64,000 nucleotides of DNA from Leucoraja erinacea (Eukaryota). Positions 24,594 to 60,283 of the stretch are shown here, one piece after another (position 1 is the stretch's first letter; every line of letters starts with the position of its first letter). The translations under genes were made by a program, and so were the position numbers. The stretch covers positions 10,106,001 through 10,170,000 of the forward strand of contig NC_073409.1 in assembly GCF_028641065.1 (NCBI RefSeq), given 5' to 3'. The notes beneath the pieces are model-generated. The model worked only from the letters and a program-made list of their open reading frames with translations, made no database searches and was not told where the DNA came from.

Positions 24594-24607
24594 GTTGCCT
24601 TGGTAAC
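24594..24607. promoter_or_regulatory. RFX X-box
   Basis: GTTGCCTTGGTAAC, a near-palindromic match to GTNRCC-N(0-3)-RGYAAC. Confidence 0.8.
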
Positions 24608-24744: not shown

Positions 24745-24763
24745 ACTACAAGTCCCACAATGC
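24745..24763 (+). promoter_or_regulatory. ZNF143 (SBS) / THAP11-type ACTACAnnTCCCA motif
   Basis: ACTACAAGTCCCACAATGC matches the composite motif enriched at vertebrate bidirectional promoters. Confidence 0.75.
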
Positions 24764-33230: not shown

Positions 33231-33290
33231 ATGTCAGAGAATTCCAGCGATAGTGAATCCTCTTGTGGTTGGACCATAATTAACCATGAA
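33231..33290 (+). CDS. CCPG1: CCPG1 coding exon 1 (LIR motif WTII); exon begins at 33215
   Basis: MSENSSDSESSCGWTIINHE|GTAAA; acceptor TTTTGCAG ending at 33214. Confidence 0.95.
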
Positions 33291-36200: not shown

Positions 36201-37873
36201 GTGCAACACAAAACAGTACGACACGGGATCAGGCCTTTCGGCCCACGATATCTATGCCGACCATGATGTCAAATTAAACTAATCCCTTCGGCCTGCACAT
36301 GATCAATTTCTCTCCATTATGCCTACTCGTGGCTATCTTAACAGTATCTTAAACACCACCACCATATCTGCTTCCATCAGCACCCCTGGCTGCTCATTCC
36401 TGATACCTGTCGTCCTGACCCCTACCTTACCTATGCTCAATTATTTCATAGATTATTCTATGATAGAACAATTTCTTTGCACAGAGGTTCTGGGGTAAAC
36501 ATTTTAAAATTACTTTGGTATGCCCTGATCATTCAATAATTTGATAGTCTTGCCCCAATCAATTATTCCGGGCACTCAGTTTATTCAATGCGTTCTGTAA
36601 AATGTTAAAGTTCTGTGATGTCTTCCAGTGAATAGAAACTAAGTTTCTTTATGTAGACTAAAACATTGATGAGGCATGAGTACATTTCATTTCATGAGTC
36701 CAGTGGTAAATAAACCTTTTTTTTCACCTAGTTTTCTTTACATATTTTTAAGATGTTCAAAAAGTTGATTAAAATAAACACTCTCGAAATTAGTTAATGT
36801 TTGTTTTTTGCTCATGTTACAAAATAAATTATATATAAAATTATACACATATTAAGACAAAAATTACCAAAAAAGATAAGAGCATTTAGGCAAGGGTGAA
36901 TTAAATTTTGTGATAGACTCAAGGGTGAATGACACTGAAATAGTTTAAGAAGCACTGGTATAAATCATCCAATATACTTTGTAGATGCAATGTTCACAGC
37001 AATTAGATTGTTCATGCTGTGTATATGCTATGGTTAAATATGATTGTGGTCAATGCTTTTAATATTGTATGTAAATCACAAATCCTCTTCATTTCACATG
37101 GCACCCATTTTTAAGTTATTTGTAGGAAATGTGTATCATTTATTATGTTGATATGCAAAAGAAATACAGGAGAAATGGGAACCACTGGGCTCTTTCACAT
37201 GATCTTTGACTCTCCAATTACCATGTTTCAGTTTGACTAGTATTTCAATCATTTGGAAAATTATGGGAAATACTGTTTATCATTTTATTTTTATTCTGGT
37301 GTATCTTTACAAATATTTTAGTAAGGAGTTTTCTTAAAGCATCCATCACACAGAATGGGGGAGTGGGATCAATTGTCCAGCAGAAGGATTGGACTGACTG
37401 AACCTCATGTTTGTGCAATTCAAATCAGAACTAAGATGATGTTTTAAATTATCTAATTATGATGAGAGAATGTTAAGAAGACTGCTGTTACTATTTTAAT
37501 GTGTTGCTTAGAAGACTAAATGCACTAAATTATTTTGTGCTGTTCATGTACTATATTTATATAGTCTGGGACTTTACTGCTGTATCTTAAAGTATGTTCA
37601 CCTTGTCGCTTAAAGAGTACAAAGTCAGATAATTGTGTGTGACGCAACTGATTCTGATTTGGTCGAGTTCTTTGACAATTTGAATATTCCCGTAATTATT
37701 GTGTAGTTAAAGATGCTCTCTTGGTAGCAGAAAATCTGAAGGCTGTGTAGGTAGAGATTTTTATGAGCATTACATTCAAGCATAGAATATGCATATCATC
37801 AAGTTAAGAGTAAACATAACTTTTGGACTTGCTTGAAGTGATACTTGATAACTGATGATCTTCCTTTGGATAG

Positions 37874-37973
37874 GGTTCTGACGTGGAGGTACTCAATTCG
37901 GACAAGGGAGATGCGGAATGCACTTTGCAGCCTTTAACAAATCAACAAGTTGACCAATCATGTGAAATACATG
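37874..37973 (+). CDS. CCPG1: CCPG1 coding exon 2 (FIR1-like SDVEVL)
   Basis: TAG|GSDVEVLNSDKGDAECTLQPLTNQQVDQSCEIH|GTAAG; 100 nt. Confidence 0.88.
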
Positions 37974-39321
37974 GTAAGCAAAATAGCCAATGGAGATTCT
38001 TTTCATTTTCTGCTAAAAAAGCATATATATGCCGGTATGTAAAGCTTATGAATGCCTAGTTTATAACTCCCACCTCCTTTCTTGAAAGTGGTGCAGTGAC
38101 TGGGGTTCAATCCCTACCCTGGGTGTTGTCTGAGTGGCGTTTGTGCGTCAATTTCCTCTCACACCCCAAAAATGTGCAGCTTGATTGACTGCTGTAAATT
38201 GTACCCGAGTGTAGGTGAGTGATAGAATCTGAAGGGCAGTGAATGAAAAATGCAATGGATTAAAATATGATTAGTGTAAAAATGGATGCCTGATGATTGG
38301 TGTGGACTCTGACTCAATGACTTCCTTGCCTTGACTTCTCCTGCATTGATACAGTTTGTGAACGTTGATAGCCATTGTCATCCTGCTCGGGTGACAGATT
38401 ACCAGTTTCACAGGCACCAACTAGGTTGTTAGAATTTTGTTGTCTTGCTAACTAGGATAAGTTAATGGTCAGAAGATGGGTCCCCACCTAATTTGTCCCT
38501 TTTGTTTTCCTCTGCAGCCACACCTTCTGACATTAGTCAAAGTTAAGACAGATTCTGAGTATTTGTTGGTTCAGTGGCTGAGATGTTAAGTTGATGACCA
38601 TTTTATTCCACTGAGCCTTGTTGCATCAGTCGAAGCTAAATGCTAGAGAAAAAAAACTGTTCAATGATCTGAAGTTTCCACTTCAAATACATGATTTTCC
38701 AGTGTAGATTTTTTTTTCCTGCCATAATGGAATCGTTAACTTGTTTGCTTTCCTTATAGAAACTTTCCCAATTTATAAGTAAAGTCCGTTCAGTTCTATT
38801 AAATGGTTAATTTCTATGCTGCTTGGATTAACTGGTTTCCCTTTAATCAGATAGAATGTGGAGTCATAGAAGCTCAATTATTTCCCTTTCCTGTTATTCG
38901 ACCGAGAATTGTTTGATTTATCAAGCACAAGATTTTCCATCTGTAGTCTGTGGAGGATCATTGACAGCAGCTTTGGGAATTTTGTACTAAACCTCAAGCT
39001 TGAAAATCTTTCCATTTTAAGGGGCAATGTTGATGGTTTTGGTGTCATTGTAATATTAAAATCTGGACCAGTAAATCAGCTGTGAGTCATTTATTATGGA
39101 TTTTCTTTAAATGTGAAAGCTAATTTGTATTTGTTGACTCTTGCTATGTATCTCTGTAATAGTGTTTTCCTGAAAACAGGCCAGATTGCTGACTCTAGTA
39201 TAGAGAAGAAATAAACATTGTTGAAATTGCAAAATCCCTGTTTCAATGACTTAATAGCTTCTTGTTCTTCATAAATTTCTCAAACTTTGCAACATTTTAT
39301 TCTCTGTAATTTGCTTTGCAG

Positions 39322-39404
39322 CAAAAGATAGCGAGCACATAGAGCCCAAAGTGGAAAATCTCAGTGCTTCAATTGTGTCTGAGGAAACGGAATTGGTATC
39401 TAAG
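39322..39404 (+). CDS. CCPG1: CCPG1 coding exon 3
   Basis: TGCAG|..KDSEHIEPKVENLSASIVSEETELVSK|GTGAG; 83 nt, restores phase 0. Confidence 0.8.
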
Positions 39405-40863
39405 GTGAGATCCTAGTCAAATTGCCTTTAATGAACTTGCATTTGCAGTATTCAATTGGATGGTTGGTTGGTAATATCTGGTTACTCTTTAAATAATAAA
39501 GTTGGAATCATTAACATTTGTAAAGTGTCGTCAGAAATGTGATTCAAACATAAAGAAATAATTGGATTGGCTAATTAATTATGAACCCACTGCTTTTCTA
39601 ATTTACACAAACCTTAATGTTCCTTGTAATATTTGATTTCATCAGAAATGATTGTGTATATAACCTTTTTGTCACAGCCTTTCTCTTTTGGAGCTATTTT
39701 CTGTGGTATTGGCTTTTGGGGCATTTTCGGTGGCCTAGAAATTCTAATGGGTAACACGATGTTTTCTAATTATTAAAAATTTGATGTCTAAACATGTGAA
39801 TGCTTAGTATTCTGGATTTTCATTGAATATCCTTGGTGTACAATATTGTTTTGTGCAGATGAGACCCAATCAATATCATGGATCAACATGACACATGATT
39901 AGTACAGGTGTCAGAGGTTATAGTGAGAAGACAGGAGAATGGTGTTAGGAGGGAGAGATAGATCAGACATGATTGAATGGCAGAGTAGACGTGATGGGCC
40001 AAAGAGCCTAATTCTACTCCTATTCCTTATGAACACACTAAAGCAAATTTGAGTTGAGATCAGGCCTGCTTTGACATAATTAAAAATGAGGCAACAGGGA
40101 GACAGAATTATTCATTTTATCCATTTGCTTCATATTTATTGGTGGAACGGTGTGTTCTTGTCACCTGAGCAGTAGAGAAAGCCATTTATGCAGTATGGAT
40201 TTGAATGCTAATCTATATTTAAAATTTCAGAGGCAAGAAAATGTGTTTAATTGATGAATACAGGAGCCAGCTTGCTGCCAAATAATCATTGAAAATGTGG
40301 AAAACCTCGGTTGTATTTCATGCTTTTTTTAACTTTCTTATTCAAGAGGTAAAGATTTATTTGAGATAATCAATAGAGAGGTTTAGGTGCACATCTTCTA
40401 ACTGGACTGAAAACTATTTTTATCTTGATGTGTTTTTTTCAGCACAGGATACTATTGAAAATCACTTAATATCTTGAACTCGCAGCCATCTATTTCCAAT
40501 GCTGTTTTGGAATTCCACTCAACCTTGGGAATCACCTATCGCTTCAGAAGTCAAAGCATTCTAAATTGGATTGGATTTAAAAAATTGCTATTTTACTGAA
40601 AATAGGGTTAACCTCCGGATATAAAACTCTTGGACATTTTGAGGGTAGACAGTAAAACCTTGTTGAATGCCAAAATCTTTATAATGTATTTCAAATTTAC
40701 TTGATATAATTTCTGAGAAACATTCCTAATTGTGAAATGTGCACTTTTGGTGTAGGTTGCATTTTATGGATTTGACTTGCAAAAATAAATTGCCATGAAA
40801 ACTTAATTTTTCCTTTTTTAAAAACTAACAGGGCACTCTTGTTTCCATGTTGTTTTTAACTAG

Positions 40864-41074
40864 GCACCAAAAGAAGAATTGGCTGATGACAGTACTTTTG
40901 TTGGTGCAACCAGTGATGATTCAGATATTGTTACCCTTGAGTCACCGCCTGTGGAAGATCTTCAGACTATTCAAGAAGCAACTGAAGATGCCGAAGCAGA
41001 GCACATGAATGACGATGAATTGAACCTTGGCTCGTCCTCCAGCAGCCAGTATACTTTTGCCCCTCCCGAAACAG
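40864..41074 (+). CDS. CCPG1: CCPG1 coding exon 4 (FIR2 SDDSDIVTL)
   Basis: TAG|APKEELADDSTFVGATSDDSDIVTLE...LGSSSSSQYTFAPPET|GTAAG; 211 nt. Confidence 0.95.
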
Positions 41075-43877
41075 GTAAGAACAGGTTATTTAAAGTGCAG
41101 CTTGAGTGCAAGGTAATGATTTTTCTCGTCAATAAGTTAAATCTGCATTGAAGATGTTTGAGTAGGTGTAGATTTCACAATTTTAACATCAATTCATAAC
41201 TTAATTTATTAAATACTGTACCCATTTATTGAGATTAAAAGACAATTGCTTTATTATTCTAATAACAGATACTTTACCTTTGACATTCAAACTACTGGTA
41301 ATTCTGTACACATTGAATTATAAGGATCTTTGAATTGACAACTTTTTAAGATGATTGACCAAAACTGAAGCTAAGCATAATGAATGCTTGAAAACCGATT
41401 TATAAGCAATCAAAAAAAAACCTTGTTTGTAAATTCACTGTTATTGAGGTGAATGTGACAGCTATGCCAAGCTTCACTCCCAGAGCTGACCTGAATACAG
41501 ATTTATATATTTTCTCCCTTTGTTCTGGGTCACCGAGCATAACAAAACATTGCCTCTATTGGTCCTATTGTTTAGTTTGATGTTATGCTAAAACCACTGC
41601 TTTCTACCGGTATATTTCTTCAGGCTAAGTTCTTGGCAATAAATACAAATGTCTGTTTTATGCAGATTCAAATACACTTGCTTATTTCCTAATGGACACC
41701 CTGTTTCATTCCTGTCATTTCTAACTTCTGGAAGCTTATGAACATTTATATCTAAAAAAAAAAGCAACGTGACCTCTGAATTGCCACAGTGTACTTCAAA
41801 AGTAGGGGAGTTGTTAAGTTGTTAGTATTATGTCAGGATGCTTTGCCTAGCTGCTTGAATGACTCCCTTGCTGAGTTATCGACACCTTGGTTGGTGCCAA
41901 AGTTATGGCAGGTAATGTTGATATTTCTTATAGTTTTATATTTGCATATATTCTTACACCAGAGGGAGTCTTTTGATCCACTAAGTCTAATAAGGCTGTG
42001 GATCAAAAGGCTTTAAGAACAATCATATTAATCCCACTCTCCCACTTGAACCCCTGTAACCTATTCTATTTTACGAGCTACCTATAATAGGGCTATTTTA
42101 CAGTTGCCAATTAATGTTACATCCAAACACTGGGTTTGGAAGAAAACTATAGTATTTGTGTGGGGAACCCTGTCGTCACAGGGAGAACATGCAAATTCCA
42201 CACAAACAGCACCAGACGTCAAAATCAGACCCTGGTCACGGGAGCTGTGAGACAGATGCACTACCTGTCACATCTCTATGTTACCCTGTTGAGGAAGTTT
42301 AGTTAGAAAAGTACACAGGAAATAAAAGATACACTTGCAGTCTAAAGAAGGATCCTGACCCAAAACATTTTCTGTCCATTTTCCTCCACAGATGCTGCCC
42401 TACCGGCTGAGTTCCTCCAGCACTTTGTTTTTTACTCAGCATCTTGGCTACCCCAGCTTATCTCATCTTATGAACAAATTGGTTGAAGTGGACAAATATT
42501 TTGTAATATGCTCTAAATTGCTGATCTTATGCTTTTTTTTTTTTAGTGATCTATCGTTTCAGTCCTATAATCTTCCAACCTCATCCATTTAACGTATCCA
42601 TCCCTTTGCTCTCACACCCAACGAATAAATGTCATGCCCTTGCCTTTGTTTACAAATGATCTTGATGCATTTGCATCGTAATAATTGCTGTGCTGTTTCC
42701 CATCAAGCCCCAGGGATCCATCGTGCATTGGAAAACCTTGTGCTGTCAACTTCGGCACTTTGCAATTTGTTCCAATAATCCACTAGCCGTTTCATATTAA
42801 TTTTGAAATTTCCCTTTGAAACTTACTTTTGAGACCTATCTATCTTGGTCCGCTTCACCTAACTTGTCTATTAAGCCAGCCACTGTGTAGTTTGATACTT
42901 CAAATCTGTAATTATAATTCACTCCAACCACCATCACCACAACAACCCCCCCCCCCTCAAATCTTTTAGAGGGCAAAGTAAACCACTGGGGGAAGGAAAT
43001 TCCTTTCCTCAATGGATGTGCTGCTTTGTTGCTTATAAAAAAAGTTGTCAAATATTTGCTCCCATGCAAATTTGTAGTAAGATATTTAGTCTAAATATTT
43101 TTTCTTGTATTATTGCTGTTTCTTAAAGAGCATTTTGTATGTAAGGTGAAAAGGGGGAAACATTTCCAGATTTCTACATTAAAAAAGAAATCAAAGAGGC
43201 TGGTTAAATAATAATAATAATAAACTTTGTTACGGACTCGAGGTCCAGACAACATATAAAATACATATAAAATCTTAGTATATCACTTATAAAAGCATCA
43301 TAAATTATATTAAAAAAACACGATACATGAGCTAAAAATCCAGATTAAAAGAATGATCAATGTCCTACAATGAGACAACGATACCAGTGTCTCCACAGCT
43401 GGGATTCGTAGCGTGTAGTGCTAACCCTTATGTTTGACAAGGCCACAGTAATTACATTTTTAGAGTCATGTATCCTGCAAATGAATTTATCTAGTCGTTG
43501 TTTTTTTTTGCAGTGGTGTGCACATAAGTATCCCATTATTCTCTTCTGAATGACTGGCTTCTAAAAGGTCTGGTTCACAGTCGACTAATACAATGACAAC
43601 CTGATCCAACATGTTACACAGAATCTTCATTAATCTCTTTCATGGAGTGTTGGGTTAGGTTTGGAATCAAATAGAAGTGGAGTATTTTTTTCCCCCTTCA
43701 TATCGCTTTTTATAAAAGGTAGGAGCAGAAACAGGTCATTCGGTCCATCGAGTCAGCTCATGGCATATCTTTGTATTGTTTCATTAACTTGTCATAAATC
43801 TTTAATAATCATAGATGCACTATAATGCACAGATTATAAGAGGACTGCGTAATCTTTATAATGTTTTTCAATTTTAG

Positions 43878-44123
43878 TATCTGCATTGGAAGGAAGCATG
43901 AATGAATCGAGTAGCGATGAAACCAGTGGTAATTCCAGCCCAACTCTGCGGAGACGACGCATTCGAAAAAGAACCCTATCTTCTTCTGAAGCAGAGGAAA
44001 AACCAGAGGAGGATGTGGTGGATGGAGAACAGCAGCAGCAGCATCGATTCAATACCACTCTGAATAAATGCATTTTACTTGCACTGGTTATCGCTTTCAG
44101 CATGGGATTTGGGCACTTCTATG
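43878..44123 (+). CDS. CCPG1: CCPG1 coding exon 5 (basic stretch and transmembrane helix)
   Basis: SSSDETSGNSSPTLRRRRIRKRT...LNKCILLALVIAFSMGFGHFY|GTAAG; 246 nt. Confidence 0.95.
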
Positions 44124-44589
44124 GTAAGTTCAACTTGTTACCTTGTCTGTGCATAGCTCCTTCTTCCATATAGTTGGTGCCTCAAGGTGCTTCTCAGAAG
44201 AGAAAATGGGAAGAGAAAGAAATTGTTAAGATTAAAATTTAAACTAGAGAGACAGTAGGATGGGCACCAGAGTATTAGGTTAGAAATTGGAGAGAGTAAT
44301 AGGAAGGTAGAGGTTAGGACCAATAAGTCTTAAAAGGAAGGATAGGCAGGGAGAAGCAGGGAGAACCACGTTTTTGCAATGGCTACAACAACATAATTGG
44401 GCTTCGCAAATTGCCCCTAGTGTGTTGGGAGTGGATGCGAAAGTGAGATAATATAGAACTAGTGTAAATGGGTGATAGATGATTGCCGTGGACTGGATTG
44501 GCCAATAGGCATGTTTCCATGCTGGGTTGTTTTTCCAATCAACTTTTTAATCAATATTAATATTCAAGGTCATCTTGAGATTAAGGTGG

Positions 44590-46015
44590 TGATGTTAGTG
44601 TGCTTAAACCATTAAAGTGGTTAAATAACTAGGATCTGATATATCCTAGATTATTGAGAGAGGCAAGAGAGGAAATTGCAGAAGCCTTGACGAAGATCTT
44701 TGCATCTTCTCTAGCCAGAAGTAACATACTGGAGGACTGGAGAGTAACTAATGTTGTTCCTTTATTTAAGTAGGGAAAATCCAGGGAATTATAGGTCAGT
44801 GAGCCTCAAGTCAGTAGTGGGGAAGCTTTTGGAGAAGATTGTTTGGGATAGGATTTACTCGGAATATAGATCAGCTACAGAAACAGCTGAGGAAATGGCA
44901 GATGGACTTTAATCTGAGCAAGTGTGAGGAATGATATGGGGGCTTTGGAAAGGGTGCAGAGGCAGTTTACCTGGATCAGAGGGTATACGGTTCAGGGAGG
45001 GGTTGGGCGGTCATGGTGGCGCAGCAGTAGAGTTACTGCCTTGCAGCGAATGCAGCACCGGAGACCCAGGTTCGATCCCGACTACGGGTGCTGTCTGTAC
45101 GGAGTTTGAACGTTCTCCCCGTGACCTGCGTGGTTTTCCCCGAGATCCTCGGTTTCCTCCCACACTCCAAAGACGTACAGGTCACAGCTTAAGGATAAGG
45201 GGGAAATCCTTTAAAACCGAGATGAGAAGAACTTTTTTCACACAGAGAATGGTGAATCTCTGGAACTCTCTGCCACAGTGGGTAGTTGAGGCCAGTTCAT
45301 TGGCTATATTTAAGAGGGAGTTAGATGTGGCCCTTGTGGCTAAGGGGATCAGGGGGTATGGAGAGAAGGCAGGTACAGGATACTGAGTTGGATGATCAGC
45401 CATGATCATATTGAATGGCGGTGCAGGCTCGAAGGGGTGCCGAATGGCCTACTCCTGCACCTAATTTCTATGTTTCTAAAGACGTACAGTTTGTAGGTTA
45501 ATTGGCTTGGTAAATATAAACATTGTCCCTAGTGGCTGCAGGATAGTGTTAATGTGCGGGGGGATCGCTGGGCGGTGTGGACCCAGTGGGCTGAAGGGCC
45601 TGTTTCCGTGCAGTATCTCTTATAACTAAACTAAAACCTGGATTGTTTTCTCTGGAATGCCTGAGGTTGTGGGGAGATCTTATAGAGGGATATAAAATTG
45701 AAAGGCATAGCTAGTGGAGACAGAATCTTTTTCTCTGGATGGGAAAAATCAAATACTAGCTTTAAGGCATGAGGGGCTAAGTTTAAAGGATATCTGTGGG
45801 GCAAGTTTTTATTTTCACACAGAGGGTGGTGAGTGCCTGGAACGCACTGCCAACGTTGGTGGTTGGCTGATATGTAAGTAGAATTTCAGAGACTGGATAT
45901 GCAAGGAATGGAGGGATATGGATTATGTACAGGTAAATAAGAGATGGGCTTGACGTCGTGTTCGACACCGACATTGTGGGCCGAAGGGCCTGTTCTTGTG
46001 CTGTACTGTTCTATG
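44590..46015 (+). mobile_element. Nested cluster: old CR1 containing an HE1-like SINE (~45005-45635), which contains a younger CR1 3' end (45181-45477)
   Basis: SINE A/B boxes TGGCGCAGCAG and GGTTCGATCCC. The inner CR1 (GHSLRIRGKSFKTEMRRTFFTQRMVNLWNSLP) is flanked by TSD AAAGACGTACAG (45169-45180, 45478-45489). Confidence 0.8.
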
Positions 46016-46478
46016 TTCGACGTTTTGAAAAGGGTTTTGAAAGCAGAGAATTAAAGATGAATGGAGAGAGGTTTAGTGTAAACTCAGTTGAATACTTTTA
46101 CAAAGTGAATTGAGGGAGGGGGAAATAGAGAAATTGTTCTGTAGCCTTGGATAGTTCAGTCTTGTTGCATTAGTTTGCTATTCATTTCTTAAGTTTATGG
46201 TACCACTGACTGAGCTAATGCAAACTATTGTTTTTGATTCTGCTACATTCTTTTCGGCGACCATTATAACCTCTGCTCCCTGTCCACCTAGGAAGTATGA
46301 GAGCTATATTTAAAAATTACTTAAGATAGACACAAAAAGCTGGAGTAACTCATTACCTTGTTAGTTCAATGAGAAGGCTGGAAATAAGACAACGTTATGG
46401 TTTGTAAAAGCGTATGCAGAAGGCACTCATTGTTTAGAGGTAGGATTGGTATGACTTGTCAGAGAGAACTATACTGTA

Positions 46479-46919
46479 CAGTAAACCCTCGTTTTGACAG
46501 ACCTTTTTATAATGGATTTCAGTTATAGCAGTCGAACCTACCGACGGCTGCCTTGGCTCACACAGCCTCCCCTGCCGCTTGCCTACAGACCCGGCTGTCC
46601 ATGTCACCCCCGCCCCTCCCCTGGCCGCCAGCAGGCCAGGGCCGTCAACTCACTTGGATTCCAGACCCTGTTCCAGACTGCGAGTCTGAAGAAAGGTCTC
46701 GAAACGAAAAGTCACTTATCCATGTTCTCCAGAGATGCTGCCTGACCTGCTGAGTTATTCTAGCACTTTGGGTTCTTTTGTGTATTAACCAGCAACTGCA
46801 GTTTTTGGTTCTACTATTTATGCAATGATAATATCGTACTTGGTTATAGCCGACATTCAGCAGTAACGGACAGCATTCCGCCCCCCCTCCCCATGGTGCA
46901 TTATAACAAGGGTTTGCTG
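46479..46919. mobile_element. Tigger/pogo-like (Tc1/mariner) MITE with a nested short repeat (~46683-46815)
   Basis: TA|CAGTAAACCCTCGTT ... AACAAGGGTTTGCTG|TA terminal inverted repeats. Confidence 0.7.
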
Positions 46920-47350
46920 TATTTTGTTATGTCTCAGTTGTCGTTGGTTACTAAAATGAATACCCATCATGAGGAATTTAAAAATGTAGAAGTGAAAGTT
47001 AGACTACAAACTGGTGTGCATAGGACTTGTTATTTTTTTCCTTGGTTCTTGAAGCCATCTGTTGGCGTATGCTTGTTTTATTACCGATAGGTCACATAAA
47101 GAGAAAAGGCAATGAAAATGCATGCTTTCAGAACACATTACCACCTTTCAATCCTGAGATTAAACAGTAAATTGAACTGCCAACTGTCACGTGCTCATTC
47201 TTACGAATTTGGGGAAATGAGCTTCCAGACCTTCCATGCGTGTGTTATTGATGTAATGCATTTGGTTTAAAGGCCAGTCTGGTGTGAAGTAACGTACAGT
47301 TTTTTTGTTCTGTATTGTGGCTTATGGTTAGTTTTTTATGTTTTTTTCAG

Positions 47351-47362
47351 GTGAATTTGAAG
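47351..47362 (+). CDS. CCPG1: Candidate CCPG1 12-nt microexon (phase 1/1)
   Basis: TTTTTTATGTTTTTTTCAG|GTGAATTTGAAG|GTAAGA; in frame, changes HFYG-TTQ to HFYGEFEG-TTQ. Confidence 0.55.
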
Positions 47363-48171
47363 GTAAGAATGGCAGTGAGTACAACAACCAAAGCCATAAG
47401 AATTGTGTGGAAATATTTTATCAAATTTACATGCATTGCACTGGTTACTAGTGACTCTGAACCTGCCTTGACACTGCAAGCTTTATTGCTCTAAATTCTC
47501 TCAGATTTTAAATGCCAAGGTAGTCTTAGTTTTGTATATTTTAAAGGAAAATTGGTAATTTGCTTTTAATGAAAGCTGTTTAAGTACATGTAGTACAGAA
47601 GTTGTAACTCATGTCATACAACATGGAAACAAGACCAATGGTCCACCAGCTCTGCCCATCAACTACCCATCTGCACCAATTCCTATTTTCCTCTCATGCA
47701 TTCCCTTCAACAACCCCTAGATTCTACTATTTACTTGCACGCTTAGGTCAATTTATAGTGACAAATTATCCTGGGATCTGGGATATGAAAGGAAACTGGA
47801 CAACCTAAGGAAACTCACAGTCTCATAGGGCGAGTGTACAAACTCCACATAGTCAAAATGAAAGCTGGGTGCTGGAACTGTGAAATGACAGCTCTATTAG
47901 CTTCACCATTGCCACTGCTGTTTTTATTTATAGATTTCATTTTTATTCGTGTATGTTTGGAGAAAACAAACAATGTACTAAAAATGTTTTGAATACTAGC
48001 ATTTTTGTGATGCTGTTTCTGGGTTTATGAAGATTTTTAATGCACCCTTCACAAAAGGAAATCTCAGTCTTCAACTTAATAGCAACTGGAACAGGTGTGA
48101 TCAGGTCTAAATCCTAACACTTCGAAGCATCAAAGTGCTTCATCAAGTGTACTAAATACAGGATTGTCTAC

Positions 48172-48470
48172 TTTTAGTTTAGTTTAGCAATACAGCTCGG
48201 AAACAGGCCCACCGAGTCTGCGCCAACCAGCGATCCCCGTACACTAACACTACCCTAGAGACAATTTACAGTTTTTACCGAAGCCAATTAACCTACAAAC
48301 CTGTACGTCTTTGGAGTGTGGGAGCTCCCGAGGAAAACTGGAGCTCCCGAGGAAAACCCACGTGGTCACAGGGAGAACGTGCAAACTCCGTACAGACAGC
48401 ACCCATAGTCGGGATCGATCACGGGTGTCTGGGCTGTAAGGCAGCAACTCCACATCTGCCACGTGGCGCC
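48172..48470 (-). mobile_element. HE1-like tRNA SINE with an internal 19-bp tandem duplication
   Basis: (TTTAG)n tail and GGAAACAGGCCC; GGAGCTCCCGAGGAAAAC repeated; B-box remnant GGGATCGATC. Confidence 0.75.
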
Positions 48471-49814
48471 CATGTTTTGTTTTAACGATAATATGGTTTT
48501 AACGATACGTTTCCATTTGAGCTAACGATAATGCGTGCAGTAGTTAAGACAAGGTTTCTTCATATTGAAATTTGGATTTGAGTCAGCAGCATTCAGAGCA
48601 TGTGCAATTTGGTTTAATATTGGTTGGCTATGTAGACTAAATGCCCCTAACACTTTTTTCAATTTCCATTGTTTCAGCATGTACATATTTATTGAAATTC
48701 GTTGGTGCAATGTACAACATTTAGAATCTTTTATTTCTTGTAGCATGCAAAAAATCTTGATCGTTAGATTGCAATTTTGATGCTAAGTTTTGATCATTTA
48801 CTTTAAATATGTATGCATGAACGTTTAGAAAAAATGTGCTTTGGTGAATGCAAAAATACAATGCATGACTTTTAAGAATGGAAAATGCTTTTGAACATTT
48901 GCATTACTTTTGTTTTGGGGGGGGGGAAGGAGAGAGTGAAAATGAACTTGAAATATCCAAGTACAAATAATATAAGCATGGACCGATATAATATTCCTGT
49001 CCACTATGTTTCACTTGGATTTATTGCATATGTTTTTATCGTTTGAAAGTCTTTGTATCATTTTATTGTGACATCCCTAATTGAGGTTTGTCAAGCTGTT
49101 TATAGAAATGGAAAGGTATACCTATTCAATGAAACCCTACACATAAGCTACAATGTGAATCAGTGCATGCTCAGAAAAGATGTATGCCAAGAAGAGAAAA
49201 TGTCTGAACTGTCTAAAACGATCTTTATATTGCTGTTTTAATTGTTTGAACACACATTTGGGTTTGTCATAGTTGTAAGGATAATTTATTTTGTTTATAT
49301 ATCGTATATCCTCCACATTGAGTTGCATTTGCCATATCTAAATACTCGTCCAACTAATCATCGTCTCTTTTGTGGGCACAATTACAAATAATAGCAAGCT
49401 AAATATATATTGATATTTCATTTTGGTAATCAAATATAGAAGCAGTGAAATAGAATACATTATAAATGGTAAATCATCAAATCCACGAATGAAATGCCAC
49501 GTTATTAAAATGTGATTCATAGGTCATGTTTTACAATGCCACACCATTCGAAATCCCCTTATGGCTGTTTACCTTTGATCATCAAACAGGGCCAGAATGT
49601 GAAGTGTAATGGTAAATGAAGCTGCACTGCCACACTTTCAGTTGTCTGTCATGTTGCCTAAGGCAGTAGTGTCTGCTTATATGTGTATACACACATAGCT
49701 GATTGTAAACCTGCGCATGTACTTGCATTTTTTAGTATTTGTATCGTCTCTGTTGAAATACATGCATTTGGGGTTGAGACTAACCTGCGAATTTAATACT
49801 TGATCCCTGTTTAG

Positions 49815-49853
49815 GAGACTTTCAAGATGGCAGCCAGTTGCCTCTGAAGAGGG
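49815..49853 (+). CDS. CCPG1: Candidate CCPG1 39-nt cassette exon (phase 1/1)
   Basis: Branch point ACTAAC (49779-49784); CCCTGTTTAG|GAGAC...GAAGAGGG|GTGAGA; open in frame as DFQDGSQLPLKRG. Confidence 0.5.
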
Positions 49854-52306
49854 GTGAGACGAAGCTCATTTGAAATAATGGGGAGTATGAGAAGGCCATC
49901 CTTGCTCTTGATAGCCCCCATTAAACTTTTTCTTTAAAAAAAAAAAAAATGCTTTAAAATGTATATTTTAAGTTTATACTTAGAATTTCAAAAAGATAGA
50001 GTACATATGGGGATTGCTTATTACTTGGAACAATACTAAGTTAGTGCTCTTAACTGTACACTTTTACACTCAATTTCGCTCGCACTTCTGGCTTGTTAAT
50101 TTTCACCTTAATGAAGTGATCTCTCTCTGGTGTAGCAATATTTATCTACTGCACTGGTTCTACCCCAGCAATTTGAATTCATGCTCACATTATAGACACT
50201 CGTGAAGATCAGCTTTTTAAAAAACATGTTCTCCAATGCATATACAGTTGTGGCTCTTTTGATTTGTGCACTTCATGTATGCCAGAAGCTAGTATTGATT
50301 GGCCATTTCTTTATTATATAAGCCTCTTGAAATTAGTCGAAGATGCTTCTGGCTCAAGAGAACCAACTAGGATCCTCGATCTGTGCGCTATATTGTTCAA
50401 ATATTTCTGAATAGAGGATACTTTTTACATTATTTTGGTTTCTTTTGAACTAAAAGTAACTCGTTCGAAAAGAATATACACAGTAGTCAGTGCTAAATTA
50501 GGAAAGATAATAATCAAACTGATGCGGCCTAAATTCACTTGTCTCCAATATTCCTAATTTTTTATGTTATTACATATTATATTTTTTATGTTCCCATTTA
50601 TTTCCTTGCCCTGTGCTTCAATAATTGGTGTTAGCTCTATGGGGTAAGGCTAAATCTGGCACTCCTTCGGTTTTATGCATCTGAAAACCAATTTCAGATC
50701 TTCTAGGCTACATGGCTTTCAGCTTTGTCTAAGGATATTTTTGTTCATTAGACGATCAAGAAAACTGCCGAACTGTTCTGATCCTCAATTGCAGATATAA
50801 TCTAAATGCAGTTCTTGCTTGAACTTGTGAATTATTTGTTTAGGTTTATTTGTGAGTTGATACTTCACTGTATTGGCCATTTACTTTGTGCATGTCCACT
50901 GAATCTCTTTTCCTCAACATGCCAGTGTGAGTGACACTAAATCTGAGGAAAATGTATCTGCATTATTGAATTGAATCAGACAACGGCATGTATACACAAA
51001 AAATGATTGTTCAGTAGTTACTGTTGAGGTGACTTTTCCAGGTGTCACCAATTTATTTGAAATTTCAAGAGCTACAAATTTGAACATCAAGATGGGTTTT
51101 GTAAAAACAAGATTATACTTGCATTTTCAAATGCCATGCAAACCTTCAACTATTGCTCTCCCATGTAAATATAACAATATTTAGAGGACCCAATTGGCTA
51201 CATTAATAAGCATTACAAAATAATCAGGCACAACAGTGCTATGAACTAATGCTTAAAAAAATTAAGAGCAGGGATGAGAAGTTTGCCTCCTGGGTTATCT
51301 CATTTGAAAGTGGACCAAAGGGTTTAGTTGGTGGCTGCCTGGAAATTGGCAGTAGAAAATTTAAATTAAATTGACTGAAAAAAAGTGTTGTTTACATTGG
51401 GAGAAACTACATGAATTAAGGTGCTTCTTTTCAAAACAAAAAACGAATATTTAAAAATCAAGAGAAAAAGAACACAATTTTTGTTAATTCTAGTTTAAAA
51501 AATTGAGCGAGCATAGGGAAGCATGTTATTGGATGGATTTTACCTTTGCCGGTTAAGACATTATGTACGGGGAAAATTGGTTCTCCTCCTCAGAGGACCA
51601 CACGGCAGTTGTAATAGTGTTGTACCTAAAATTTAAGTAAAGAAAATAGGATAAGTGAGTAGTTTTGAATGTAATTTTGTGTACATATACTAATTAATAG
51701 GATTTTGTCAATCTAAAGTAAAACAATGTTGGCAACTTTCTGGAAATCCGGCCTCATCTGCAGAGTTGATTTTTCATCCTGTGAATAATTTAAAGCACTT
51801 TCGTGTTTGTAGCTTAAAATTGGCCTGCTCATTGTTTTAGTGGGTCATCGCTTTATTTCTAGACTTGGATGATCTGCAAAAGTGAAAGCTCAAAGAAAAT
51901 TGCTTTATTCTTGCAAAATCTTTTTTAACTCGTGGAAATGATCATTTGTTAATGTGCAAAACATGTACATTTATGTGCACAAAATAGGGTAAACATTCAT
52001 TTTCAATTGAAGCTGAAGAAAGTGAAGAGTTGAATGCTTGTTTAAAGTATAGATGACATGACTGCTACAGCTAATGAAATATCAACCGTCACATTTATAT
52101 AAAGAACTCTTTAGAAAAGTGTGGTTATAGATATTCTTTTGGTTGTATTACTGCATTTATATCACAAATCATTATCTAATCACTTACATGCGTATAGTAA
52201 ATATTCCATATTTATCAAGTAACCATCCAGTAATGCACTGGTAAGATAATATCCAAAAGTCTTTTTTTGATAGTGCGATGGTACGTTTTGTTTTGGATAA
52301 TTGCAG

Positions 52307-52428
52307 GGACGACCCAAATACAAGAACTGCAGAAAATGGTAAAAAGAATCCATGAAGAAGAACTGAATGATATGAAGGATGATCTCTTTCAGTGCCAAAA
52401 TGATCAAGACTCCTATGTGGACAGTATG
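52307..52428 (+). CDS. CCPG1: CCPG1 coding exon 6 (luminal start)
   Basis: TGCAG|..TTQIQELQKMVKRIHEEELNDMKDDLFQCQNDQDSYVDSM|GTAGG; 122 nt. Confidence 0.92.
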
Positions 52429-52475
52429 GTAGGTCATTAAATCATTGTTTCACGGACACAAGGCCTACCTTGTGT

Positions 52476-52577
52476 AATTTTATTGGGAGATTATTTATTT
52501 TGGCTGGGAAGGAGGGACATAAGGCTTACCTTGTGTCCCTCCTTCCCAACCAAAATAAATAATCTCCCAATAAAATT
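52476..52577. repeat. 49-bp near-perfect inverted repeat with a 4-nt loop
   Basis: Arms 52476-52524 and 52529-52577 are reverse complements except at two positions. Confidence 0.9.
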
Positions 52578-53869
52578 GTAAAATAAAAAATAAGTAATTA
52601 AAAAAAAATAATAATAATAATGTATATTCGAATTCGGTATGTCAAGAAGCAAAATTGATTAGTCTCCTGAGGAACAATTTCTGAACACGTCAATTTCTGA
52701 AAAGTGTTGAATACTCTTTTGTGTGGCCTTCACTGTTATGCAACTTTCAAAATGTGTGTATTTGTTGAGATTAATTGATGAGCAGGCCTTCTGAAAATCT
52801 TTAGGAGAAAAATTGCTAGATTTACCTACACTTTGTCTTTTGGGCATTTTTCAAGCATTCTTTTCCAATTCCTGGCAATTAGATTGTTTAACTTATTCAC
52901 CTTGCTTCCCAGATTGACCATGCTCTCTGTGTAACCATTAACAGTTCGTGCAAACATATTTTTCTCCCCCTCTAGGTTGGTGCTTGTACAGTCCTCTTTC
53001 ACCACCAGATTCTCCCCACCACTACCACAATCGCCCAAATTCAACTCCAAAATTATTAAGAACTCTTGAATTCTGGTCTAGCACATTCATGATTGGTTGA
53101 ATCGGAGCGTAGCATTGGTGTTTTTCCCGTGGCATGTTTCTGAAATAACTTTAGTTTTGCTCATTCAGATTTGCTTATCAAAGCACAATTGTCCTGAGTT
53201 GACTTTACCGAGTTCTGCAACTATCTTCCCTCAAGTATAATATGTTTTGTTTAGAGATACAATGTGAAAATGTGTTTGAACGTTTCATGCAGAATATTGA
53301 TCATGCATATTAAAATACTTGGATAGTCTGAAGAAGGGTCTCAACCCGAAACGTCGCAATACATTTTCGTATTCGATATCCCTTATTTTCTTAGGAAATT
53401 GGCTGTCCTGTAGACGTCTGGGCACCTGAACTAAAATGACCCAAAGGCCAGGATTTCAGGATCAGCAGAGACTGCCGCTCCCTCATGACCCTGTCTGGGG
53501 AAAATAGAAATTTGCTTTGATGGAAATCTGCCATTGGGGACTTCAGGGGAAAAGGATGGGAAATATTGCCGTGTGAGGGACAAATCCCATCCATAATACT
53601 GAAAAATAAAGGTTTCTTCTGGACAGTATCCTGAGCACAAGATATTTGTATTTGTTTGCCAACCATGCTGCCCAGTCTCCTACTGGAAGTCAATTAGGCT
53701 CAACATGCTGTCTGTATTGGACATAATTTGATTATACTGTCTGTTGAGGCTATTCTTAAGTAATTATACATTCTATTAAATAACAGGCAAGTGGTGTTGT
53801 CTGATACTGAACATCAGTCAGTACATTCAGCGAATGAAGAGTCTGGAATAAAGTCAAAATTTATAAGTG

Positions 53870-54350
53870 AGAGGGGTAGAATTAGGCCATTTGGCGCATA
53901 AAGTCTACTCCACCGTTCAATCATGGCTGATATAACCCCATTCTCCTGCCTTCTCCCCATAACCTCTGGCACCTGTACTCATCAAGAATCTTATCTATCT
54001 CTGCCTTAAAAAATATCCACTGACTTGACCTCCGCAGCCTTCTGTGGCAAATAATTCCACAGATTTACCACCTTCTGACTAAAGACATTTCTCCTCATCT
54101 CTTTCCTAAAAGAACATCCTTTAACTCGGAGGCTATGACCCATCCTAGACTCTCCCACTAGTGGAAACATCATCTCCACATCCACTCTATCCAAATCTTT
54201 CACTATTCTGTATGTTTCAATGAGGTGCCCCCTCAATCTTCTAAACTCCAGTGAGTACAGGCCCAGTGCCAACAAACGCTAATCATAGGTTAACCTACTA
54301 ATTCCTGGGATCATTCTTGCAAACTTCCTCTGGACCCTCTCCAGAGCCAG
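53870..54350 (-). mobile_element. CR1 LINE 3' end
   Basis: ORF LGLYSLEFRRLRGHLIETYRIVK...FSQKVVNLWNYLP. Confidence 0.85.
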
Positions 54351-54460
54351 TTAGGGAAATAAATAAGATTACAACAAAATAATTTGCAATTTTTTTGGTA
54401 ATAAATATAATTTATTATGTTAGCTTCACTAATATTTATAGATATCCCGTTGTAAATTAG

Positions 54461-54586
54461 GATGGAACTGAAGATTTTTTAGAAGACAAAAAGGAAGATC
54501 CTGACATGCTTCTTACACTGACTGAACAAATGGATAAAATGAAAAGGGAGAATCAGCAACTGAAACAAAAACAAGCAGAACTTCAG
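54461..54586 (+). CDS. CCPG1: CCPG1 coding exon 7 (126 nt, phase 0/0, coiled coil)
   Basis: TAG|DGTEDFLEDKKEDPDMLLTLTEQMDKMKRENQQLKQKQAELQ|GTACT; open frame with coiled-coil character. Confidence 0.75.
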
Positions 54587-55829
54587 GTACTAACTGCTCT
54601 TGGATACCTGTATTGCTTTTCTTGATATAATATAAAGCACATTATTTGTATTGAAATTAGTAAAATGTTATCAAATATTATTGTTTGAATACTGGGTCTG
54701 CCAGTATTCTCCAGATTGCCCTAAATTCTCCAGCAAACAACCCTGAATAATTAGTTTTGTGCTGCTGTTCAGATCATAATCGATTGTTGGTCGAGTATGA
54801 GTGTCCTGGTGGATCCTTTCTGTGGGTCTTGAGATGGTTGAAAAAACTGATTCCAGAGTCACAGACTTTATTGCAGTATATCCCTCCAGGTGGATGCTTG
54901 TGAGACACATCTTTTAACATGCAGAGACTGATGCGTGAACATCCACCACACCATCCTTGACAGATACCTACCCGGGTCCAACTCCATGGACAGTTAGGAG
55001 TTAATCTCTGCGAACCTCCCCCTCGAACTGCCTGCCATGGCTGACCCCATTCTCCAAATGGCTCGGCTCCACTCCCAAGATCTTACACACATGCAAGCCT
55101 CTCCACCGTGATAAAGTTGTTCGGAAGTTCATAAGTGATCGGAGCAGAATTAGGCTATTCGGCCCATCAAGTCTATTCTGCCATTCAATCATGGCTGATC
55201 TTTCCCTCTTAATCCCATTCACTGCCTTCTCCACATAACCCTTGACAGTAGACCACGGAGAAGACTGTTCAGATTACAGAAACCATGAATCGTTTCTGTA
55301 TATGTGAAATTAGCAGATATTTTCCATGTGTAATGCAATTCATAAATGATGCCATCATGCACAATCCATCCATTCATTTTAAGTATGATTAATATGCATA
55401 AATTACTTTCTAATTCTCCTCCATCCCTATTCAATATTATTCTTTAACCCTCCCCTCTATTCTAAGATGCCTTTTTATTACTTTCTCACATCTACAATGG
55501 TATAAAACTAGTTTAGACAATGCAGTGAATATTTAAATTTTAGCATCATTATTCTGAAGGCTTTTTAGAACAAGTGTAAATTGATTCCATTCAGGACATT
55601 GAAGTCATTATATTTCTACAAATGTTAGTTTGTAGGATTATTTGCTCGTATACTACATGGCATTCTGTGGATGACTGAATACAGAGTACAAAAGTACACA
55701 GATGGCAATATACATTTGCCATCCAGAATGAGTTCCTAGATGACCTAGTGAATCACTTTCTCTCAAAAGTATTTATCTCTGCTCGGAGGAGTGATGTGTT
55801 ACCGATGAAATATTTAATTATTTTTAAGG

Positions 55830-56400
55830 GTGTTTTATTGTCAAATGTCCTGAAACGGAACAATGAAATTCCTATTTGCAGCTGCACAACACAAATGCAA
55901 ATATAGCACTGTAACATTGCAATAAACACCATAAAAAGTTCTATAACAAGCAATAATAGTGCAAAGACAAGAAGATGCCCACCAATCTATTTAACTTGGA
56001 GCCTATTTGGAGGTTGTAGTGTTTAATAGCCTGATGGTTGTAGGGAAGAAGCTGTTACTGAAACTGGACGTTAGTTTACAGGCTCCTATACCACCACCTC
56101 AATGGCAGGAGTGAAATAGGAATATGGACAGGGTGGTGTGGTCTCTAATGCTGAATACCTTTTTGAGGCAGAGACTCCTATAGATCTAATGGGGAGGTCA
56201 GTACCCGTAATAGACTGGGCAGTGTTCACCACTTTTTGTCATCTTTGTTTGTGAGCTTTTGTGTTGCCGAACCAGGCCTTGATACAACCAGTCAATATGC
56301 TTTCTCCTGTACACCTGTAGACGTTCAAGAGAGTATTTATTGACATACTGAATCTTCGAAGGAAGTAGAGGTGTTGATCGGCTTTCTTTAAGATTGCATC
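55830..56400 (-). mobile_element. Rex1/Babar-like LINE 3' fragment
   Basis: GTGTTTAATAGCCTGATGGTTGTAGGGAAGAAGCTGTT...GGAAGTAGAGGTGTTG; polyA-signal complement TTTATTG at ~55834. Confidence 0.6.
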
Positions 56401-56860
56401 TCTTTTAGGATAGGTACTTTTAAATACTGTTTTTCATAATTGATGACTGCTGCTATGAAAAGCTTGTAGTAAGCTTGTAGAATTTCCCAGCAAGTTTGGG
56501 ATGGTACCTACAACTTAAAGGTTTCTACAAATGAGATTTCTATTTTTCCAAAGAAATTGTTACAATAAAAAGTAAAGTTTGATTCCTCATCTGCTTCAGT
56601 GATTCTGGAAAATATGTGTGACCATCTACTGGTAAACAGCAGAAGGGATATCTATTTAGAATTTTCAATAATTTCAGTGACTTCTTTCAATAGGTCTATT
56701 AAGGATATTTTGAAATGTAGCATGTACTTAATAGTTATTGAAATGTAGAATTTGGCTCCTATTTAATTTTGTTGCCCTATAATATGACTAATAAACTGAC
56801 TTTATAATGCACATTGCCTTTATAAATGGATATTTAACAATTTTTATTACGATTATTTAG

Positions 56861-58296
56861 TCACAAGGAGAAAACTTGGAAACTCGTTTAAAAGAAACTG
56901 TGGATGAGAGGCTTTCGGTTGAGTCACAGCAGCAAGTGCTTGCCAAAGAAAACCAGCGTATGAAAGAATCCCTGGAGCATGAAGAGAAAGCATTATCCTT
57001 GTTGCAGAATGAGCTTCGGAAGTTGAGGGAACAAATCAGGACATTGGAAGGAAAGGGAATGGATGCTGAAACAATTATCACGGAAAACCAGAAACTGAAG
57101 GATCATCTAGAAGAAGAAAAACAACAAGTACACAGTTTCCTTCTACAGAAGGGGACCCTTGTGACTGAGGCTCAGATGCTAAGAAAGGAATTGGATAAAG
57201 AAAGAGAAATAACTGATGTACTGCGTAAGGAACTGGATACCTTGAGTCATTTTCAATCTATGCCTGATACAGCCCAAGATGGTAAAATAACAGAAGGTTT
57301 ACAAACAAGACTTGCAGAGCTAGAGAAAAAATTGGATTTTGAACAGCAACGCTCTGACTTGTGGGAAAGACTTTATCTTGAATCAAAGGAAGAAAACACA
57401 GACCCTGCAACTAAGAAAACAGAAAAGAAGCAAGGGCCAAAAACAAATCGGGAGTTTTATGGAACTAGGGATAAAAAGAAGCAATCTAAAGGCTTTATAA
57501 GATCATTTAAGAATACGTTTGACGCTGTGAAAAACTCAACCAAAGAGTTTGTGCGTCATCATAAAGAAAAGATTAAACTGGCAAAAGAAGCTGTTAAAGA
57601 AAATCTTAAGAGATTCTCTGATTCTGTTAAATCCACATTCCAGAACTTCCAAAACTCAGCAAAAACATTATTTCACAAAAATAAGAGACGTGATGACGCA
57701 GATGCAAAAACTAAACGGCATGGATTCCAGCAACGTCACAATGAACACCCATGTAAAACGAACAAGTGCAGACAACATGGTGTTCATGGAGACAAAGATT
57801 CCTATCAACATAAACCCAGACAAGCCACTCATGATGAGATCCACGGTAGCAATTCAAGGAAACCGCACAGAATGCACGCTGAGAACTCTCACAGTTTTGA
57901 ATCGGGTGAACATGATCACTTGGGAAAACATGCACACTACAAGAGCCCTAAAGGTTGCTCTGATGTTTTTGAATGTGCCCACCAAGAATCTTTGAGTCTA
58001 TTTAATAAAGTCCTTGACCCCATCAAGATGGAAGAATTTCATGAGCTTCTCCATAATTACCTTCAACGAGAGATGGTCGACTTCCAAAGCTGGAGTGAGC
58101 TGGAGAAATTTATCAACCGTTTTTTCCGTAATGGGCTTTTTATACATGACCAAATGTTATTCTCTGATTTTGTTAACGATGTTGAAGATTATCTTGAAGA
58201 TATTGCAGAGCACCAAGAAGGCAACCATGATGGTTTTGATGACCTGGATGGATACATCTATCAGCACTTGTTTGGTGACAATTACATTAACCCAAG
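56861..58296 (+). CDS. CCPG1: CCPG1 coding exon 8 (large luminal exon)
   Basis: SQGENLET...EEKALSLLQNELRKLREQIR...LDFEQQRSDLWERLY...FDAVKNSTKEFVRHHKEKIK...CSDVFECAHQES...FIHDQMLFSDFVNDVEDYL; donor AG|GTAAT. Confidence 0.96.
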
Positions 58297-59124
58297 GTAA
58301 TAGTTTGCTCTTTTATCCAGTTGATTTAGAATTGTTTGTTTCTGAAATTATTTAAGTTGTACAGTTACATTCACGATATTCAGAATTTAACTCGCCATTT
58401 GAAATTGGCCGATAGAGCAGGATACTGTTTATAACTTTGGGATTGTTTTTTGATTTGATACGTGATAGATTCAATCCTAGCCAATAGGAATTTGTTAAAC
58501 TAAAAGCCACCAGAGGCTAAAAATTTAAAATAAATACAGAAAATACTGGACTTCCTCAGCATGTTGGGCTGCATCTGTGGAGAGAGAAATAGTTCGCATT
58601 TTGGGTTGATCGCTGTTCCTCCACAAACTTTGAATGTCTTTCTCCATCATGTCGCCAACCTGCTGAGAACCGTCCAGTATTTTCTGTTATATTTGGAATT
58701 CTGTAATGAATGTTTTGGGTGTAGGAGTGAGTAAGCATAACAGAATTTCAGCTATAATAGTGCGAGACAAACAAAGTTCCAGAAATATTAACACAAAGGA
58801 ATCTTCAGAACTACAACTTTATTCTCATATTTGGCAAACTGTAAGGATTCTACCAGATTTCTGTCCGTGTCATATTCCAGTTTATAAAAGTCTTCTACAC
58901 CTGTTTCTTTTTAACTATGTAAGAGGTATTGAAGATCAATCACAATTAATTTCCTGTCAGTTGGCCAGCCAGTGCCTTCATTAGACAGTTGGAATCTGCA
59001 CTGAATATCCAGTTGCCAGTTTGGACCGCAGATTTTTAGAAGTCTCCATTAATAGAAGATAGATTCATCAAATCAAATCCACTTAATTTAAGATCCTTCA
59101 ATAAGAAAAAGATTCATTACTTTT

Positions 59125-59360
59125 GAACATTGAACAGTACTGGACAGAAGCAGGCCCTTTGGCCCACAATGTCTGAACATGATGCCAAGACCAAATTTGC
59201 CTGCACATAATCCATATACCTCTGTTCCCTGCAAATTCACATGCCTATCCAAAAGGCTCTTAAATGCCACTCTCAAATCTGTCTCCACCACCAACCCCAG
59301 TTCCAGGCACTCACCACCCTCTGCGTATATCATCTTTAAACCTTGTCCCTCTCACCTTAA
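59125..59360 (-). mobile_element. CR1 LINE 3' fragment
   Basis: CAGGCCCTTTGGCCCACAATGTC...CAGGCACTCACCACCCTCTG. Confidence 0.65.
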
Positions 59361-59584
59361 TTTTGATTGATACCCAGGTGGTCTATTGAATGATATCTAG
59401 GTAGTCTATTGATTGAAAAATGAAATATATGTATAACATTCGCCGATAGCCATAAAATATCTCCTCAACCTACTGAGTTCCCTTTTGCTTTACCAATGCT
59501 CCAAGACCATGTATCAAAAGATCATTATCAATACATTCATCTACTCCTTTTCTAAAGTAAGATTATTATAATGCTGCTTGAAAT

Positions 59585-59920
59585 AACCATATAACAATTG
59601 CAGCATGGAAACAGGCCATCTCGGCCCTACAAGTCCGTGCCGAACAACTTTTTTCCCCTTAGTCCCACCTGCCTGCACTCATACCATAACCCTCCATTCC
59701 CTTCTCATCCATATGCCTATCCAATTTATTTTTAAATGTTACCAACGAACCTGCCGCCACCACTTCCACTGGAAGCTCATTCCACACCACTACCACTCTC
59801 TGAGTAAAGAAGTTCCCCCTCATGTTACCCCTAAACTTCTGTCCCTTAATTCTGAAGTCATGTCCTCTTCTTTGAATCTTCCCTATTCTCAAAGGGAAAA
59901 GCTTGTCCACATCAACTCTG
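59585..59920 (-). mobile_element. CR1 LINE 3' end
   Basis: ORF RGHDFRIKGQKFRGNMRGNFFTQRVVVVWNELP. Confidence 0.85.
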
Positions 59921-60081
59921 TAGGTTGTGGCCGTAGTATTTCTAAATGTGGCCGAAATGTGGCCGTAGTATTTCTAAAAACCTATTGCACTTATACTAAT
60001 GCACATTGGGAATTACAACTGAATAGACAAATCTTGGCTATTTTACTTAAAAGCCATAATGAATAATTTTTATTTTTGCAG

Positions 60082-60283
60082 TCCACTTTACGATGCTGAT
60101 AAATACAGAAAGCATAATTCTAAACATGCATCTGGCTCCAGGCAACAGAGACCTGAAAGGAAATACCAGCAGGCTTACCACCACAGGGATTGTAAATGGA
60201 ACAAGCCAGGACGTACCAATGGGAGACACATGGCGAATGTTGAAATTGAGCTGGGGCCGATGCCTTTTGATCCAAAATATTAA
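60082..60283 (+). CDS. CCPG1: CCPG1 last coding exon (core spliced CDS 2586 nt, 861 aa)
   Basis: TTTTTGCAG|..PLYDADK...[29 protein letters not shown], the conserved CCPG1 C-terminus. Confidence 0.95.

Follow-up and report, generated by a model that had tools for sequence, protein, structure and literature searches.

A 12-nt microexon, apparently ancient, at the membrane-lumen junction of a predicted CCPG1 orthologue in Leucoraja erinacea

In a 64,000-nt stretch of the Leucoraja erinacea genome (the window), we found a 12-nt, frame-preserving microexon in the intron that follows the transmembrane (TM) exon of a gene assigned by homology to CCPG1. The reading that we favor, and hold to be fairly probable, is that of an ancient cassette exon which is skipped in the one transcript seen and which, if included, adds a likely hinge between the membrane helix and the luminal helix.

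The host gene and the exons on either side of the microexon lie as follows (positions are those of the window).
33231..60283, plus strand: coding exons of CCPG1, the span that hosts the microexon (tblastn with shark and platypus CCPG1 as queries)
43878..44123, plus strand: TM exon, coding for a cytosolic acidic/basic linker and the TM helix and ending in phase 1 (tblastn, spliced contig, sequence)
44057..44113, plus strand: predicted TM helix, the most hydrophobic 19-codon stretch (Kyte-Doolittle mean 1.7)
52307..52428, plus strand: first luminal exon, a predicted helix toward the coiled coil (tblastn, spliced contig, sequence)
Shark CCPG1 proteins aligned exon by exon across 33231-60283 in tblastn searches, and all 120 protein matches listed for the large exon were CCPG1, with 75-79% identity to sharks. 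The TM motif is nearly invariant in the CCPG1 alignment (A1). Full-length homology, a single TM helix and a long luminal domain, by which an orthologue of CCPG1 is recognized, were all found, and by sequence the host gene is taken to be this orthologue; its activity as an ER-phagy receptor (binding of LC3, FIP200 and cargo) is assumed here by orthology with human CCPG1. Elsewhere in the window, exon-like open frames at 10346-11853 on the plus strand code for a charged coiled-coil protein, which by gene order is likely the neighbor DNAAF4, and a long low-complexity tandem array at 23663-24745 is open in several frames and adjoins a 369-codon minus-strand frame at 22596-23705.

The microexon and its splice signals occupy the following positions.
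47328..47350, plus strand: acceptor of the microexon, a T-rich polypyrimidine tract and CAG (sequence)
47351..47362, plus strand: the microexon, a 12-nt phase-1/phase-1 cassette that codes for EFEG and whose first bases are GT
47363..47368, plus strand: donor of the microexon (GT at 47363; ranked by donor matrix)
It lies inside an intron of 8,183 nt between the TM exon and the first luminal exon, both junctions are in phase 1, and the four added residues can be read as EFEG or equally as GEFE, the Gly codon being split at the junction. An earlier note on this DNA had claimed an acceptor, 12 nt and a donor that together add EFEG in frame at the luminal side of the membrane, and these claims were borne out: the tract and CAG run to 47350, the exon covers 47351-47362 and the donor GT is at 47363; the flanking phase-1 exons keep the four residues in frame; and the insert comes just after the predicted TM helix. 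With a size within the microexon range of 3-27 nt (as given in the accessible text of PMC13174390), a length that is a multiple of three, equal flanking phases and a stop-free reading frame, it has the features of the frame-preserving class. Its donor ranked first among the 487 GT sites of 44200-52250 when scored with a simple donor matrix built from textbook frequencies, and its acceptor, with 16 T in the 20 nt before it, is the T-richest (rank 1) of the 243 YAG sites of the intron. None of 300 dinucleotide shuffles of the intron yielded an equal acceptor/12-nt/donor unit, a figure to be read as a rough guide and not as a p-value, with thresholds that derive from the unit itself; the same threshold is passed by no other unit in the window on either strand. 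By these ranks and shuffles the canonical AG/GT signals stand beyond chance, and the unit is not a chance arrangement. The T-tract is broken up, a further AG lies about 19 nt upstream, and no consensus branch point was found within 100 nt of the acceptor in the window.

The same insert is found in database protein models of other species. In catshark, the RefSeq isoform X9 (XP_038669607.1, P0005) holds the same four residues and X10 (XP_038669608.1, P0004) is without them, and the difference between the two is exactly the microexon peptide. Among 432 proteins compared, 369 span the junction: 262 carry no insert, 93 a microexon-type insert (91 by pattern and two colugo forms) and 14 other inserts, and the share of 93 in 369 is biased upward by one search that used the insert-bearing region as query. 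The insert length is fixed at four residues, the first being E, T, R, V, I, K or N and the second F, P, H, L, Y or R. An insert of the form xFE begins with T in chimaera, E in catshark, I in gar, R in sturgeon and V in paddlefish, and lizards keep xFE as well. The insert reads KPE or KRE in birds, turtles and alligator, KFE, KYE or KLE in lizards and snakes, KLG in caecilians, KPK in platypus, and KHE, KHG or KRG in beaver, rabbit, dog, whale, bat and cattle. It was present in 5 of 9 chimaera models (UniProt V9KA16 among them), one gar model, 2 of 19 from sturgeon and paddlefish, 4 of 7 from monotremes, 4 of 11 from beaver, 4 of 15 from rabbit and hare, and both caecilian models. Included and skipped forms are paired among the database models of catshark, chimaera, platypus, beaver and turtles.

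Four clusters of teleost proteins (zebrafish, cavefish, smelt and eel), 29 proteins in all, showed no insert, and neither did 14 primate proteins, which are mostly of the 424-aa isoform, nor was one seen in the few models from frog, axolotl, lungfish, coelacanth, reedfish and opossum or in the rodent-like proteins examined. Since insert-free models occur in several lineages, the microexon may be dispensable or rarely included. Cartilaginous and bony vertebrates separated about 450 million years ago. The comparisons indicate an ancient microexon, whose range takes in chimaeras, sharks, birds and many mammals and which automated annotations already contain. The earlier note had tied its case to conservation, which was found, with the insert in chimaera, gar, sturgeon, reptiles, birds and mammals and a separate exon in a bird contig. 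Its description of the isoform as unannotated did not stand: the isoform is in RefSeq or UniProt models of catshark, chimaera, gar, sturgeon, many sauropsids and mammals, a comparison made with the automated gene models of other species.

A metagenome scan for the locus gave two loci, a bird-like contig (L002) and a fish-like contig (L003), and an orthologous separate exon is present in one of the two, the bird contig.
L002:2756-2767: bird orthologous 12-nt exon, 856 nt downstream of the TM exon, coding for KPE
The donor of the bird exon ranks first among the 218 GT sites of its intron, and the bird and window microexons agree in their five final exon bases and in six bases of the donor. The best local alignment of the window intron with the bird intron lands on the microexon, and its score of 39 is inside the range of 35-44 given by 20 shuffles, so the alignment detects no significant conservation of the flanks. 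In the fish contig, no matching unit was found in the 702-nt intron (L003:1666-2367), which together with the absence from all 29 teleost proteins suggests that the microexon was lost in teleosts. For mammals, sturgeon and chimaera, we infer the separate exon from protein alone.

It could be argued that the database inserts arise through use of another donor, 12 nt inside the TM-exon intron, with the window unit unrelated or due to chance. Most amniote inserts start with G-K, as would read-through of a consensus donor, and the odd inserts GLLD, GKIA and GMLLEC may be prediction artefacts of the read-through kind. However, the TM-exon read-through frames of bird-, turtle-, snake- and mammal-like contigs continue with unrelated residues, and because they do not yield the insert peptides, the inserts are not donor read-through. 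Moreover, the bird contig carries the microexon as a separate exon, and the read-through of the window's own TM exon gives GKFN, which is unlike the catshark insert. A tandem-donor origin was thus ruled out for the bird by the separate exon and is unlikely for other amniotes by the read-through frames; as an account of the inserts together with the window unit, we consider it extremely improbable.

Reads and contigs of four sequencing runs, none of them on record as RNA or with a tissue label, were placed on 43800-52500, and one of the four runs gave a readable junction, which was the skipped form: in a 3,238-nt contig from run X1, 44123 is joined directly to 52307. Two single-cell runs had thin exon coverage, with junction rows swamped by intronic repeats, and run X21, which is from another organism, had almost no coverage of the CCPG1 exons. 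High-copy interspersed repeats at 44382-47000 and 48165-48455 in the intron draw heavy read cover from other loci. We infer that some tissue of Leucoraja erinacea includes the microexon.

The same junction receives other exons as well. The earlier note had named a second acceptor at 49815, and this position is indeed the start of another exon.
49815..49853, plus strand: second cassette exon, 39 nt and 13 residues, frame-preserving (tblastn, sequence)
Its peptide is identical in whale shark X5 and X6, sevengill X1 and X3 and catshark X11. In the models it is used alone (whale shark, sevengill) or together with the microexon (catshark X11; XP_038669609.1, P0280), where the four residues are joined by the 13-residue peptide. 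With the two exons, the linker can gain 0, 4, 13 or 17 residues. A distinct 9-residue insert stands at the junction in lizards and snakes, a hummingbird model has a 17-residue insert there, and a longer form of the microexon-type insert, of 9 residues, is found in several placentals and colugo. Further downstream, 54455-54586 corresponds to a luminal exon in sevengill X1 that is missing from sevengill X4 and from the catshark and whale shark forms compared, and by this comparison it appears to be a further alternative exon. On the cytosolic side, a 32-residue exon that matches the human 96-nt muscle exon of CCPG1 is represented in chimaera models (P0329, P0330) and in amniotes; no match to it was found in the window intron 41075-43878, and its loss in this lineage is possible. 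The human exon, which belongs to the myotonic dystrophy Splice Index (accessible text of PMC11827844), is likewise a regulated, frame-preserving cassette. As a candidate identity for the microexon it was rejected, being a different exon that precedes the TM exon and belongs to the cytosolic part (PMC11827844 and PMC13330057, as far as their texts were accessible).

We next consider how the microexon may be regulated. In the mechanism that we propose, its inclusion would be set by ordinary exon definition and a tissue-restricted splicing factor, and this factor probably acts outside the UGC/SRRM4 route. If instead it belonged to the typical neural microexons that SRRM3/4 switch on, an idea close to that of the earlier note, the outcome would be a neuron-specific CCPG1. 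The 12-nt length, preserved frame, strong donor and deep conservation fit such a microexon, and the accessible portion of 10.1101/2024.09.17.613571 reports that the SRRM4 response is not strictly UGC-dependent. However, the same portion states that 74-79% of SRRM3/4 microexons hold a UGC between branch point and AG. In the window, the 93 nt before the AG are free of UGC and the first one stands at -94; in the bird it stands at -78, on the upstream side of the likely branch point (-37). This feature, typical of SRRM3/4 targets and not absolute, is therefore missing in both species. The T-tract of the microexon also abuts the AG, whereas the SRRM3/4 class is described with a distant tract, and CCPG1 had no matches in eight MicroExonator supplementary files, whose tables may not use gene names. 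Neural switching by SRRM3/4 is thus unlikely in our view, and the sequences somewhat favor a non-SRRM4 route. A motif scan found no RBFOX site within 300 nt downstream of the microexon in the window, and MBNL-type YGCY motifs are at +29 and +34 in the bird and only at +102 and +125 in the window. Since the YGCY positions differ and the window has no such RBFOX site, no shared regulator can be named.

Recursive splicing would offer another route. Here the microexon would be an RS-exon which, once joined to the TM exon, rebuilds with its first bases a donor that competes with its own, a reading that we find doubtful; to about the same degree we doubt its corollary, that the microexon is usually spliced out again and that the exon junction complex would set its retention. 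The microexon begins with GT and a purine in both species read at the DNA level. By our own matrix, the scale of which differs from that of MaxEntScan, the rebuilt donor scores 6.3 in the window, a value reached by 19 of the 487 GT sites of the intron, and 5.4 in the bird, reached by 12 of 218, within the range of 3.4-11.3 of eight CCPG1 donors, and the MaxEntScan cut-off of 5.52 that defines the RS-exon class (accessible text of PMC6224609) is not to be compared with these values directly. The first inserted residue, E in sharks and K in most amniotes, would suit a donor-like exon start, and RS-exons are described as common in deuterostomes and sometimes alternative (PMC6224609, in the part available). 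Against this, the same part gives GT as the commonest dinucleotide at exon starts, and a Gly codon is split at the junction; the rebuilt donor is far weaker than the microexon's own donor (11.2); and T in chimaera, V in paddlefish and I in gar, known to us from protein only, would make weak rebuilt donors. The constitutive downstream exon of the bird also starts with GT (L002:5410-5415; a weak rebuilt donor), unlike that of the window. CCPG1 had no matches in five supplementary files of PMC6224609.

What the four residues would do can be judged from their position and from models. The insert falls a few residues past the hydrophobic stretch 44057-44113, at the start of the luminal part. In an AlphaFold pair of catshark proteins, the form without the insert has one helix at 215-281, and the form with it has two helices, at 216-246 and 256-286, which suggests that the insert may break a helix that leaves the membrane and continues in the lumen. 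The pLDDT at the junction is below 50 (242-255 and 239-264), the pTM is 0.27 and 0.22, and the two models were made from different alignments; given the low junction pLDDT and the different alignments, the predicted hinge is only a hint. A fixed length with variable chemistry, the first residue differing in charge and size, would fit a spacer better than a binding motif, and the Gly residues that flank the insert also suggest a spacer or hinge. According to the accessible text of PMC10092646, the cargo-interacting regions of human CCPG1 are at 411-457, 482-550 and 621-734 and a conserved region A at 288-401, and the insert is far upstream of all of these. In our proposal, the insert would loosen or re-orient the luminal rod that bears the cargo-binding regions and would make no binding site itself. 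The insert leaves unchanged both the cytosolic part that binds LC3 and FIP200 and the regions that bind cargo.

An alternative to a functional hinge is a tolerated low-level isoform, kept through RNA-level splice signals or weak selection, in which the residues change nothing. This has points in its favor: conservation of the peptide is poor, with apparent absence from teleosts and no sign of it in several lineages, and the intron hosts additional exons or extensions (9, 13 or 17 residues) that are specific to particular lineages, as at a site that tolerates insertions. The same text of PMC10092646 reports that a CCPG1 truncation without residues 289-757 still promoted bulk ER-phagy, and small luminal changes may therefore matter little. 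In contrast, the 12-nt frame-keeping length and the donor context are shared between cartilaginous fish and bird in an intron otherwise without significant likeness, and xFE is retained in chimaera, catshark, gar, sturgeon and lizards. We regard the tolerated isoform as somewhat unlikely and keep to the cassette exon with a likely hinge. A far-reaching version, in which a recursive-splicing switch as old as jawed vertebrates inserts a hinge between the CCPG1 anchor and its cargo-binding rod, giving two mechanically different receptors by tissue with lineage-specific linker exons that tune the spacing, is very unlikely in our estimate.

The closest known counterparts are the catshark isoforms X9, X10 and X11, which share the junction and the same four residues with the window, X11 adding the peptide of the 39-nt exon; they are automated gene models to which no tissue, regulation or function is attached, and they were compared by protein. 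Conserved vertebrate microexons, including the SRRM3/4 programme, have in common with the window exon its size, frame, strong donor and conservation from cartilaginous fish to amniotes. Unlike that programme, the window exon has no nearby UGC in two species, and its residues would lie in the ER lumen beside the membrane helix. With the RS-exons repressed by the exon junction complex (PMC6224609, accessible parts) it shares the GT start and the rebuilt donor; unlike the RS-exons typed there, its rebuilt donor is only moderate, and CCPG1 was not found in those parts of the text and supplements. The microexon is thus a member of the conserved frame-preserving class and is not filed under SRRM3/4, the UGC being absent, or under RS-exons.

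No description of the microexon was found in the accessible portions of the literature on CCPG1 with microexon or splicing, including PMC9117662 and PMC10954754; the latter reports a CCPG1 splicing event whose exon cannot be placed from the available text. Likewise, CCPG1 had no matches in the supplements of PMC6224609, PMC7821500, PMC8187152, PMC11653684 and PMC12064062, the tables of which may use coordinates. Taken together, the microexon is real, ancient, contained in the annotations of other species and apparently unstudied. Splicing databases such as VastDB may, we presume, well list it.

Among the single- and double-pass ER-phagy receptors named in the accessible text of PMC10092646, CCPG1 is the one with a long luminal cargo-binding domain. 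The surprise is limited, as conserved microexons are well known and the isoform is already in automated annotations. Still, an exon retained since cartilaginous and bony vertebrates separated, and placed where the membrane meets the lumen, points to a form of this receptor that goes unmentioned in the literature searched.
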